This document shows, one piece after another, positions 59,994 through 64,000 of a stretch of 64,000 nucleotides of DNA. The notes beneath the pieces were generated by a model. The model worked only from the letters and a program-made list of their open reading frames with translations. It searched no databases and had not been told where the DNA came from. This DNA comes from Rubripirellula sp. (GTDB taxonomy: Bacteria; Planctomycetota; Planctomycetia; Pirellulales; Pirellulaceae). The DNA is taken from positions 4,384,001 to 4,448,000 of the forward strand of contig OZ244207.1 in assembly GCA_965216875.1 (NCBI GenBank). Direction: 5' to 3'. Each line of letters opens with the position of its first letter. Position 1 is the stretch's first letter. The position numbers and the translations under genes are program-made.

Positions 59994-61505
59994 ATGCCTT
60001 CCAATCGCCCATCCCGTCCGCGGGACAAACAGGGGCACAAGTCACAAGACGGCCAGCGCGAATATCGCGACTACCGTCATGGCGGCCAACGCCCCCGGCA
60101 TCCAGACAAAGAAGTCGATCAACGCATCCGCGAACTCGACGCCGAACGCGATCCGCTGTCGCTGCCAGAAGAAATCGTAAGCGAGGCCAACAAGGCTGGC
60201 CAACGCGTCGGCATCCCGAGCGGTGAAAGCGATCTGGGGCAACTCAATATCGCTCAGCTGCAAAAGATGCCGCATGAGGATTTGATCGCCATTGCCAAAC
60301 GCGAAGAGATTGAAGACTTCGCAAACTCGTCTCGCCAGGAATTGATCTTCCGCATCCTTAAGCATCGGATGAAGGTCAATGGCCTGATGTACGGCGAAGG
60401 CACGCTTGAAATCTTGCCCGATGGCTTTGGCTTCTTGCGCAGTCCTGAATACCACTACGTCTCCTGCCCAGACGACATCTACGTTTCGCCAAGCCAAATT
60501 CGTCGCTTTGGTCTGCAAACGGGCAGTCACGTCGCTGGACAGATTCGTCCTCCGAAAGAAAACGAGCGCTACTTTGCGCTACTGCGAATTGAGGCGATCA
60601 ATCGCCACGATCCAATGCAGCGCCAGAACGTTGTTCCGTTTGATGAATTGACACCGCTGCATCCTGATAAACGGATCATGATGGAGCACGAGCCTAGCGA
60701 AATCAGCACTCGTGTCGTCGACCTCCTAACGCCGATTGGCTTTGGCCAACGCGGACTGATCGTTTCGCCGCCCCGCGCCGGCAAGACGATCTTGATGCAG
60801 CAGATGGCGCGAGCGGTCCTGCAGAATTTCCCCGAAGCCTACGTCTTCATGTTGCTGATCGACGAACGGCCCGAGGAAGTCACCGACATGGAACGCGAAG
60901 TACGCGGTCCACAATGCGAGGTGATCAGCAGCACGTTCGATGAACCAGCCCAGCGCCACATCCAAGTCGCGCAAATGGTGATCGAAAAGGCCAAACGAAT
61001 GGTTGAATCGGGAACCGATGTCGTGATCTTCCTCGACTCGATCACCCGCCTTGCCCGCGCCCATAACAGCGACGGCGATTCGACCGGCAAATTGTTGTCC
61101 GGCGGCCTTGACGCCGGGGCTCTGCAAAAACCGAAAGCGTTGTTTGGATCGGCCCGAAAAGTCGAAGAGGGCGGTTCACTCACCATCCTCGCCACGGCCC
61201 TGGTCGATACCGGCAGTCGTATGGACGACGTGATCTTTGAAGAGTTCAAAGGCACCGGCAATCTTGAAATCGTGCTCGACCGCGCGCTGGTCGATCGTCG
61301 CATTTGGCCATCGATCGATGTCAGTCGCAGCGGCACGCGCCGCGAAGAGATGTTGATGGATCCCGAAGAGTACCGTCGCATTTCAACGCTGCGTCGCACG
61401 CTCGCCGAACTCTCGCCAGCCGACGCGATGCAGAACCTGGTTACTCAATTGCGCAAGACGCAAAACAACGCTGAATTCTTGATGAGCTTAAAAGATGTCG
61501 AATGA
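59994..61505 (+). CDS. rho: Transcription termination factor Rho
   Basis: [42 protein letters not shown]. Confidence 0.97.
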
Positions 61506-61992: not shown

Positions 61993-62010
61993 ACCTCGTT
62001 ACCCCTCGAG

Positions 62011-62240
62011 CCTCGTTACCCCGCTCCGCGTGGTAACGCACCTCCCGACGCTCCGCGTCCTCTTCGTAGGTCATGCTCCGCATGACGGCGTTCTGGCGAG
62101 CGCAGCAACGAAGGTCGCGAGGCCCGACGCTAGCGCGTACGGCTCACAAGAGACTCACCTCTCACCTTGTTACCCCGCTCCGCGTGGTAACGCACCTCCC
62201 GACGCTCCGCGTCCTCTTCGTGGGTCATGCGCCGCATGAC
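62011..62240. repeat. Two 76-bp direct composite REP repeats with another REP between them
   Basis: 62011-62086 and 62165-62240 (gttaccccgctccgcgtggtaacgcacctcccgacgctccgcgtcctcttcgtRggtcatgc..catgac). Confidence 0.9.
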
Positions 62241-62440
62241 AGGCATCCGCATCGGCAGCGAGGGCCCAATTTTCTTCGCCGGAATCGCGCGCGATTCACT
62301 ACAATGGTGGAGTGTGCGCACGGGTACCCACGTCACGATTCAGGTCGATTGGACAGCCTCTCGCTTTGGCGCGTTCACCCAACAGTAACGATCAAACTGC
62401 GCGGCAGCGTCCGAGTTCGGCCGCTTCCACTTCTCGGCGT

Positions 62441-64000
62441 GTGCGCAAACGCAAGCACCCTCTCGTCTCGCGTTTGATCGGTCTGGAAACCGAATACGCA
62501 ACGCTGGTGGCGGACCCACAGGAACTCGACCGCGAAGACCTGCCGCCCTCGCACATGGTGTACGTGCAAATGTGCGAAGCGATTCGTCGCGACCAGCCGA
62601 CTGTGGCGGGACTGTTTGACAGCGAGCAGATGTTTTTGGCCAGCGGCGGCGCGGTCACTTTTGAATCCCACCCGTCGATGCATGCTTCACCGGGCGGATT
62701 GGTTGAAATTGCCACCCCTGAAGTGCGCAGCCCCGACGAACTATTGGCCTGCCAACGATCCATTGACGCATTGGCAGCGGATGCTGCGGCCGATTCCGAA
62801 ACCAGCTTTGACTTGCGAGTGCTCAAGAACAGCTCCGACGCACTCGGCCATGTGTACGGCTGTCACGAAAACTACGAAGCCGAAGTGGCTCGTGGCATTT
62901 GGTTACTGCTGTATCGCTTCTTCGTGGCCATCCTTTGGTGCATGCAGATCCTTAGCCTGCTCGCCTCGCTTCCGTTGATGGCGATGATCCTGACGTTTGT
63001 CGCATTGCGGCGAGTCATTGGTGGGCGTGCCGAAACGAATCATGAACCACAAGACTTATTCGAGTCGGTGCCCGGCTGGCTGACCGCCATCTTTATCTTC
63101 ATGTTGCGACTGGTCTACTTGCCCACGGTCATCCTGTTGCGGTTTGTCGCCCGCCACATTGCGTTCCGTCGTCAACGCAAGTACCTAACCGCGATGTTGG
63201 TTTCGCGAGTCGCACTTTGTGGCAGCGGCCACCTCGACCATGAAGGTCGTTATCAGATGAGCGCCAAAGCGATGGCGATCGATTCGATCGCTGACATGGG
63301 CAGCTTTCGGGGTGAGCGTCCGATTTTCGTTTACGGGCATTGGCTCGGTCAGTTCTGCGCCAAGTCCTTTATGTCATTGACCTCGACGCGGCAAATGTTC
63401 AGCCGGCGACAACGTCTGCAAATCGGACTGTCGGACTCGAACATGGCTGACCTCGCCGAGTACGTGAAGGTCGGATCGGTATCGCTACTGCTCGACATGA
63501 TCGAAGCGGGCGTGACCGATGGATTACCTCTATTGCGAAAACCCCTTCATTCACTCAATCGAATCACGAGTGATTGGAACCTGATCTCGCGCGTTCCCAC
63601 GAGCCGTGGCGAAATGTCGGCGATCGAAATCCAAAAGGTTTACCTTGCTGCCGCGGAAGAGTTTGTTTTATCGACTCCTGCGACCATGCGAGGCGAAGCG
63701 AACATTGTGATCGCGCGTTGGCAAGAACTTCTCGATGCAATCATCGCCTTTCGTGTCGATGCCAAAGACACCAGCGCGGCGATTGGCCGAGTCGATTGGC
63801 TGACCAAACGATGGATGATCGACCAACTGGGCGAGGATGCCGATTGGTCACAGAAAAAGAAAATCGACCTTCGTTACCACGAACTCTCCGAAGACGGCTA
63901 CTTCAATCAGTTGATGGAAGCTCGCTCGGAATTGAGACTGATCGACGACGACCACATCCAACGCCGCCGACGTTCACCACCACCAAGCTCGCCCGCAGCA
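62441..64000 (+). CDS. PafA/Dop (Pup ligase/deamidase)-family protein with hydrophobic insertion; 3'-truncated by the window
   Basis: Own translation, frame open from 62240 to the window end (start candidates GTG 62312, TTG 62366, GTG 62441). Motifs: RLIGLETEY, EIATPE, LKNSSD..YGCHENY, LVSRVALCGSG, RPIF, SDSNM, KVGSVSLLLDMIEAG, VDWLTK, IDLRYHEL. Confidence 0.9.
   Translation, partial: MRKRKHPLVSRLIGLETEYATLVADPQELDREDLPPSHMVYVQMCEAIRRDQPTVAGLFDSEQMFLASGGAVTFESHPSMHASPGGLVEIATPEVRSPDELLACQRSIDALAADAAADSETSFDLRVLKNSSDALGHVYGCHENYEAEVARGIWLLLYRFFVAILWCMQILSLLASLPLMAMILTFVALRRVIGGRAETNHEPQDLFESVPGWLTAIFIFMLRLVYLPTVILLRFVARHIAFRRQRKYLTAMLVSRVALCGSGHLDHEGRYQMSAKAMAIDSIADMGSFRGERPIFVYGHWLGQFCAKSFMSLTSTRQMFSRRQRLQIGLSDSNMADLAEYVKVGSVSLLLDMIEAGVTDGLPLLRKPLHSLNRITSDWNLISRVPTSRGEMSAIEIQKVYLAAAEEFVLSTPATMRGEANIVIARWQELLDAIIAFRVDAKDTSAAIGRVDWLTKRWMIDQLGEDADWSQKKKIDLRYHELSEDGYFNQLMEARSELRLIDDDHIQRRRRSPPPSSPAA

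Follow-up and report, generated by a model that had tools for sequence, protein, structure and literature searches.

A membrane-type Pup-ligase-family gene of Rubripirellula and its distantly located candidate tag gene

The last part of the 64,000-nucleotide stretch of Rubripirellula DNA analysed here (the window) raises the question of what a PafA/Dop-like enzyme interrupted by a long hydrophobic insertion may do, and with which partner, in a bacterium in which no proteasome could be recognised. The answer proposed below is based on the gene itself, its homologues and the remainder of the genome.

Reading frame, neighbourhood and family membership

The ligase gene occupies an open + strand frame reaching from 62312 to its stop codon at 64123; the latter is located 123 nt past the window end, which is most likely the reason why the ORF track does not contain the gene. 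Translation from GTG 62441 gives a protein of 560 aa, the public gene call starting with TTG at 62366 gives 585 aa, and the choice of the start codon among 62441, 62366 and 62312 is uncertain. The gene is real and intact; an assembled contig of the run X2 spans it entirely with 0 differing letters and 0 gaps, and its nearest named homologues originate from Rubripirellula and other Pirellulaceae. Pieces of the run X1, presumed to be RNA, gave a patchy cover that does not count as evidence of expression. The preliminary description of this DNA had reported an uninterrupted + strand frame with the PafA/Dop motifs in canonical order, preceded by ribH and repeats, all of which could be confirmed: every motif was found in that order in the translation, and the upstream region contains ribH, rho and two copies of an 83-nt repeat. 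The features discussed in this article are as follows (window positions, except for the last one):

62004-62240, no strand assigned: the 83-nt intergenic repeat, two copies separating ribH from the ligase gene, outside the tagging system
62441-64000, continuing to 64123, + strand: membrane-type Pup-ligase-family gene (other in-frame starts 62366 and 62312)
62480-62497, + strand: GLETEY, corresponding to GhExE in core strand 1 (E16 and E18, each in 99% of 125 homologues)
62633-62722, + strand: strands 2-3, residues 65-94, with E75 (99%), E89 (98%) and ATPE
62858-62875, + strand: GCHENY of core strand 4, matching [HQ]x[NH] with His, where 82% of homologues have Gln
62897-63007, + strand: first hydrophobic stretch, residues 153-189, within the predicted helix 152-194; strong membrane-anchor candidate
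63008-63076, + strand: polar insertion loop of variable length, residues 190-212
63077-63151, + strand: second, weaker hydrophobic stretch, residues 213-237, within the predicted helix 212-240 (R223, P228, R234)
63317-63442, + strand: RPI (R293), helices 299-311 and 313-319, then QRLQIGLSDSN (R325, Q327, D332)
63794-63880, + strand: DWxxK and DLRYH motifs, residues 452-480 (D452, W453 and K456 each in 99%, H480 in 97%)
G000:C1:3305308-3305493 (main contig of the same genome), − strand: 61-codon candidate tag gene, ending with His-Asp-Gly-Glu, about 640 nt downstream of groEL

Concerning the neighbourhood, the 83-nt repeat belongs to a family with 139 blastn matches genome-wide, 121 of them covering at least 40 nt. 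Two Rho paralogues flank the ligase gene within 7 kb, one at 59994-61505 and the other—identified by eye—at the window-relative positions 66535-67845, and the convergent downstream gene, located shortly past the window end (L001:4229-5446, − strand), encodes a protein with a signal-peptide-like N-terminus, a thioredoxin domain and a C-terminal YHS-like domain. Clustering of 2,548 ORFs from the neighbourhoods revealed no broadly conserved partner. The arrangement coaE-rho-ribH is present near the ligase in only 20-24 loci, all of them close relatives, and a functional link to riboflavin synthesis was therefore rejected.

The protein is a PafA/Dop-family enzyme. At full length, it matches the Pfam family PF03136 (Pup_ligase) with an E-value of 6.6e-75, residues 11-542 covering the model positions 1-439 of 441, and its score of 253 bits compares with a gathering cut-off of 25. 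It remains below the cut-offs of both equivalog models, scoring 136 bits (cut-off 551) with TIGR03686 for PafA and 118 bits (cut-off 492) with TIGR03688 for Dop. The AlphaFold model (pLDDT 95.3, pTM 0.94) adopts the PafA/Dop fold, Dop and PafA being the top Foldseek matches with E-values from 8e-24 to 2e-16, and the profile of the ligase family gives 279 bits with Dop and 231 bits with PafA.

The evolutionary relationships were followed in a quick LG+G4 tree of 53 sequences, unrooted and containing a single actinobacterial PafA and a single Dop, from which one contig-truncated soluble ligase was omitted and in which eleven soluble ligases were trimmed to the first 620 residues. The 30 membrane-type sequences occupy one side of a branch of this unrooted tree with an SH-aLRT support of 99, the ligase from Rhodopirellula europaea 6C (L093) being positioned in the same subtree as the one studied here. 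The adjacent branch covers ligase-type proteins from those PafA/Dop-like systems of Gram-negative bacteria that are soluble and have two enzymes, also called 'UBact-type'; it should be pointed out that the support for this adjacency in the unrooted tree, 87, is below the star threshold of the tool. The soluble systems lack the insertion and consist of two enzymes whose genes flank that of the tag; their tags could not be aligned with the ones identified in this work (hhalign probability 0.1%). Some genomes of the family carry both the soluble and the membrane-type system. The soluble clusters were observed at the loci L147-L152 and L156 (genomes G362, G426, G316, G320, G407, G328 and G360), where the ligase-type protein is in several cases lengthened to about 800-930 aa and very long branches are seen for one divergent pair.

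Active site and hydrophobic insertion

The ligase core has been defined by the GhExE motif in strand 1, acidic residues in strands 2 and 3, the [HQ]x[NH] motif in strand 4, the [QH]x4D motif and two conserved arginines (PMC2588565). All of these are present in the protein as G14-L-E16-T-E18, E75 and E89, H142-E-N144, Q327...D332, and R293 and R325, respectively. In the alignment of 125 near-full-length homologues, chosen from the 270 listed, the residues E16, E18, E75, E89, R256, R325 and D332 are conserved in 97-100%, the motifs that bind metal and nucleotide being kept.

With the actinobacterial PafA (4b0t, 4bjr), the enzyme shares the fold, the motifs GhExE, ATPE, GxHENY, RPI, RL and DLxYH, and the lack of a full Dop-loop, whereas its strand 4 is followed by about 89 residues more, Glu replaces the catalytic Asp and the substrate loops are rebuilt. 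In the alignment to 4b0t and the actinobacterial PafA/Dop, E75—a glutamate in 99% of the homologues—occupies the position of that aspartate (D64 in C. glutamicum), for which the role of the catalytic base has been proposed (10.64898/2026.04.10.717840 among other sources). The loop following E75 is longer than in PafA, with the His of HPEY replaced and the ATPE motif kept; the Arg of the PafA motif NGxRxY is lost; and two predicted, partly amphipathic helices (299-311 and 313-319) are found instead of the extended loop NTRDEPHAD of PafA. According to a preprint of 2026 (10.64898/2026.04.10.717840), PafA contacts its protein substrate by the β3-4 loop and the extended loop 196-216. Since both of these contact loops are rebuilt here, the acceptor preference probably differs from that of PafA.

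The most conspicuous difference, the insertion, amounts to 107 aa (residues 146-252) between GCHENY and LVSR, compared with 18 in the actinobacterial PafA by hand count; the preliminary description had given about 107 and about 20, respectively, and had placed two hydrophobic stretches at 62897-63007 and 63077-63151, where they indeed are. Their best 19-residue Kyte-Doolittle means in this protein are 2.32 for the first and 2.18 for the second. Conservation of the insertion in homologues had been set beforehand as a test, and a segment of 99-150 aa is kept at this site in 125/125 aligned sequences, although this is partly a matter of selection, because the homologues were found with queries containing the insertion. 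The best hydropathy window reaches at least 1.9 inside the insertion in 123 of the 125 homologues and elsewhere in the protein in just one; among the soluble PafA/Dop relatives used as a control, 3/23 also have a window of at least 1.9, so that one hydropathy window alone is not decisive.

Across the 125 homologues, the 29-residue core of the first stretch (161-189) contains on average 0.14 K/R and 0.08 D/E. The second stretch, followed in this protein by a basic cluster, has a median of 1.78 and reaches at least 1.9 in 47/125, and the loop between the two contains a mean of 4.2 K/R and 3.7 acidic residues. Three non-overlapping hydrophobic windows were counted in the protein studied here, whereas one, two, three and four were counted in 24, 46, 53 and 2 of the 125 homologues, respectively. 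In the AlphaFold model, the helices 152-194 and 212-240 form a long helical hairpin directly after the strand 142-148. Since catalytic strands flank the insertion on both sides, its membrane crossings must be even in number, unless it enters the membrane and re-emerges on the same side. The simplest reading of the model is a two-helix hairpin with the active site facing the cytoplasm, and from its sequence the insertion likely tethers the enzyme to the cytoplasmic membrane. The tethering proposed earlier is thus favoured by the conserved hydrophobic insertion after strand 4 and by the helical hairpin of the model; the second helix is marginal and, together with a tip loop as basic as this one, which would be awkward for the periplasm, it may count against two full spans.

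The system had also been considered possibly undescribed, which does not hold, the insertion, the missing proteasome linkage and the predicted tagging of membrane proteins having all been covered in 2008 (Iyer, Burroughs and Aravind 2008, PMC2588565). In that computational work, the Pup ligases of Rhodopirellula and Plesiocystis were described as having transmembrane segments located just behind core strand 4 and as lacking a linkage to the proteasome while accompanied by an adjacent, often unannotated Pup, and the modification of membrane-associated proteins was predicted (PMC2588565). The present gene belongs to the kind predicted there: as in Rhodopirellula baltica and Plesiocystis pacifica, there is a single PafA-family enzyme with the insertion after strand 4 and no linked proteasome, and the small partner ending with G[EQ] often escapes annotation. 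Three points, however, differ or appear to differ. Four transmembrane segments were given in 2008, whereas a hairpin of two helices seems the more likely arrangement here, judging from the model and the window counts; a membrane-protein gene was linked there, but is not among the recurring neighbours here; and the Pup gene was always adjacent there, whereas the tag is encoded 1.14 Mb away here. No experimental study of membrane-type Pup ligases was retrieved from the full-text literature searched, most subscription papers being outside its coverage.

The candidate tag gene and its distribution

In the rest of the genome, 99% complete, no match to the proteasome subunit family PF00227 was found, the control being positive in 10/14, and the best match to ARC (TIGR03689) scored 151 bits against the cut-off of 505. 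The independence from a proteasome operon suggested previously is thereby borne out, and with regard to PafA-containing systems, the present one differs by having no Dop, ARC or proteasome and by a tag that is not recognisable as Pup. PF00227 is present in 108/151 genomes of the family, nearly always as a single copy of about 180 or 250 aa that does not track the ligase, and these matches are read as HslV- or Anbu-like, judged from size alone. In the search for Bpa, none of the control genomes matched. The three best AAA matches of the genome appear, by reading of their sequences, to be two FtsH and one FtsH-like protein. At L161:822-2978 there is an unusual 718-aa AAA ATPase, which has the HExxH motif of proteases and whose long N-terminal region replaces the membrane anchor usual in FtsH. 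Neither a dedicated eraser nor an intact second PF03136 paralogue was found in the genome. The sole other match to PF03136 is an 84-residue C-terminal remnant (L003:1456-1710, − strand; G000:C1:5743339-5743593) with 56% identity to P0184 and 44% to this ligase; its best matches are other membrane-type ligases, no upstream part is detected by tblastn, and it is probably what is left of a second ligase copy, either lost or acquired horizontally.

Concerning the tag, no ORF ending with GE is located directly upstream of this ligase gene. Among the 24 loci of distant membrane-type ligases, several of them cut by contig ends, 15 small GE-ended ORFs were seen just upstream of the ligase. Neither the profile made from these 15 loci nor a list of 57 GG[EQ]-ended frames led to the tag in the genome studied, which ends with DGE. 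The search of the genome with the Pfam family of Pup (PF05639) gave three weak matches, none above the cut-off. A profile built from 19 closer tags, all taken from other genomes, yielded one strong match with an E-value of 1.7e-8 among 189,444 six-frame segments of the genome, the next best being 0.65. This match, i.e. the 61-codon gene, is likely the tag partner of the ligase. The check for Pup/UBact, arc and prcAB thus ended with a GE-ended tag and with neither a proteasome subunit nor an ARC above the cut-off.

The tag protein itself matches no Pfam or NCBIfam family; an identical record comes from one Logan contig only, and the search of the Atlas gave no usable match. Its comparison with the actinobacterial Pup resulted in an hhalign probability of 5.5%, the likeness being confined to the tail, and a Pup match was obtained in 0/20 tags. 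The end GE is present in all 41 matches of the tag profile, the terminal Gly-Glu being invariant. The Rhodopirellula 'Pup' reported previously (PMC2588565) is, from its position and tail, very likely a member of the same ORF family. In the loci L024, L029 and L031 of distant ligases, the tag ORFs have an Ala/Leu-rich hydrophobic stretch before a GGGE tail, so that the tag of these loci may be membrane-bound itself.

The distribution was inspected in a sample of 151 genomes at the level of the family Pirellulaceae. PF03136 is present in 79 of them; 77 were counted as carriers of the long form by the match span, two genomes with only soluble pairs being set aside. A tag match (E ≤ 0.0012) was found in 66/77 carriers and in 1/74 non-carriers, the latter number being obtained after dropping three weak matches with E 0.003-0.008; since the sampled genomes are related, the count overstates the independence of the observations. 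Of the 11 carriers without a tag match, five were inspected, and in each of them a GE-ended ORF lies immediately upstream of the ligase in divergent orientation. Two full ligases of the long form are encoded in G309 and two in G400, and every one of them is accompanied by an adjacent tag gene of its own, which suggests parallel ligase-tag pairs.

The tag gene adjoins the ligase gene in 51/66 genomes and is apart from it in 15/66, one of which, G348, may reflect an assembly break; in G000 (the genome studied here), G314, G356 and G422, a single contig carries both genes, with more than 1 Mb between them. The mismatch by codon position among 14 unlinked tags, 0.455/0.301/0.646, is as for a coding gene, and these tags have in common a tail of the R[SC][ND]xxxDGE type, with Lys for Arg in one. 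The relocated tags, where testable, are thus under coding constraint and are missed by both Pfam and NCBIfam. A general link between the tag and groEL was considered and rejected, groEL occurring in the fetched stretch of 3/11 unlinked-tag loci and an aminotransferase gene in 5/11. Among the named loci, 66/79 have at least 600 nt upstream of the ligase; the tag is upstream in 18 of these 66 and absent there in 48. The upstream tag is absent in all records of Rubripirellula (12), Stieleria (5), Novipirellula (4) and Roseiconus (1), as well as in seven Rhodopirellula records, and present in Rhodopirellula europaea 6C, Rhodopirellula sp. JB055 and both Roseimaritima records. The separation of the ligase and the tag is taken here to have arisen by a secondary rearrangement within a single lineage, and the seemingly 'orphan' ligases of the Rubripirellula/Novipirellula/Stieleria group are probably not true orphans.

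Proposed activity and its alternatives

Based on the above results, it appears moderately probable that the protein is an ATP-dependent ligase acting at the cytoplasmic face of the inner membrane, where it links the Glu-ended tag to lysines of membrane-associated proteins. The hydrophobic hairpin would anchor the ligase in the cytoplasmic membrane with the active site, as the topology suggests, in the cytoplasm. By analogy with PafA chemistry, ATP would phosphorylate the γ-carboxylate of the last Glu of the tag, and an amine activated by E75 would attack the phosphorylated Glu, the tag becoming joined to lysines of nearby membrane-associated proteins; a deamidase is not needed, since the tags end in Glu. 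The tagged protein might then bear a regulatory mark or be handed over to a membrane protease such as FtsH, this being the weakest step of the proposal. The presence of the tag gene speaks for protein tagging rather than for a small-molecule ligase acting alone, while the lack of a full Dop-loop together with the Glu-ended tag favours a ligase over an isopeptidase; thus, from the two activities offered in the preliminary description, the former is kept and the latter disfavoured. Several observations may nevertheless count against the ligase reading, namely Glu at the position of the catalytic Asp, the replaced His of HPEY and Arg of NGxRxY, Gln for the strand-4 His in most homologues, the higher score of the family profile on Dop and the partial alignment of planctomycete proteins with the Dop-loop given by Hecht et al. 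(PMC7947786). In a similar way, the tag reading may be weakened by the sequence of the tag, which has no detectable similarity to Pup beyond the tail.

That the enzyme is instead a Dop-like hydrolase, or an ancestral-type enzyme both attaching and removing the tag, seems unlikely. It is the sole intact member of the family in the genome; its fold is shared with the actinobacterial Dop (4b0r, 7oxv), which is by a slight margin the best profile and structure match; and in the work of Hecht et al. (PMC7947786), single-copy planctomycete proteins served as the outgroup to PafA and Dop, and a ligase ancestor with promiscuous Dop-like activity was proposed. However, the second Glu of GxExE is separated from the conserved Phe/Ile before NG by 47 residues, compared with 36 in PafA and 74 in Dop (hand count), so that the full Dop-loop, taken as about 40 residues, is lacking, although its presence by itself does not decide the activity (PMC7947786). 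The enzyme further differs from Dop by the membrane insertion, the tags are already Glu-ended with nothing to deamidate, a pure hydrolase would be without a ligase partner, and the protein is placed in the tree beside ligase-type proteins, with a support of only 87.

There is also a slim chance that the ligase chemistry is the same, with the acceptor being a membrane lipid or a small amine, such as phosphatidylethanolamine or an ornithine lipid, and the tag becoming lipid-anchored. The rebuilding of both PafA protein-contact loops—the longer one with Glu for Asp and the helices 299-319—would agree with such an acceptor, as would the membrane anchor of the enzyme and the absence of a linked proteasome or conserved target gene. 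Ornithine lipids occur in planctomycetes, and the eukaryotic ATG8 becomes lipid-anchored. Against it, no lipid-metabolism gene is found among the recurring neighbours of the ligases, and to our knowledge all characterised PafA enzymes use protein lysines. The corresponding proposal of a one-enzyme, eraser-free, ubiquitin-like planctomycete system conjugating the tag to a non-canonical membrane acceptor, e.g. the head group of an amino-lipid, is likewise improbable; if true, bacteria would possess a parallel to ATG8 lipidation, carried out by an enzyme of the glutamine-synthetase fold and adapted to that acceptor by the exchange of Asp for Glu and the remodelling of the substrate loops.

It is doubtful, too, that the insertion does not span the membrane but serves as a surface-lying or re-entrant anchor, or as a hydrophobic interface for a partner or an oligomer. 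The conserved Arg and Pro of the second helix and its modest hydropathy in most homologues, the basic tip loop, the variable number of windows (one to four per homologue) and the few soluble relatives with a comparable window fit this possibility, whereas the nearly charge-free core of the first stretch, forming one long helix in the model, is typical of a transmembrane segment, and the basic cluster after the second helix also speaks for spanning. A catalytically inactive tag-binding scaffold, for which just the changes in the PafA active site (Asp to Glu, His and Arg lost) could be quoted, is very improbable in view of the metal-binding glutamates and catalytic arginines conserved in 97-100%, the Glu at the catalytic position in 99% and the invariant terminal Gly-Glu of the tag.

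With the protein-tagging ligase as the preferred reading, what is new here is the relocated tag gene and the existence of a lineage keeping the ligase and the tag apart. This corrects the statement, based on the genomes of 2008, that the tag always adjoins the ligase. The enzyme is common, being present in 77/151 sampled Pirellulaceae-level genomes, and the tag identified supplies a substrate for a direct assay. The system as a whole would be a proteasome-free, ubiquitin-like modification at the bacterial membrane.
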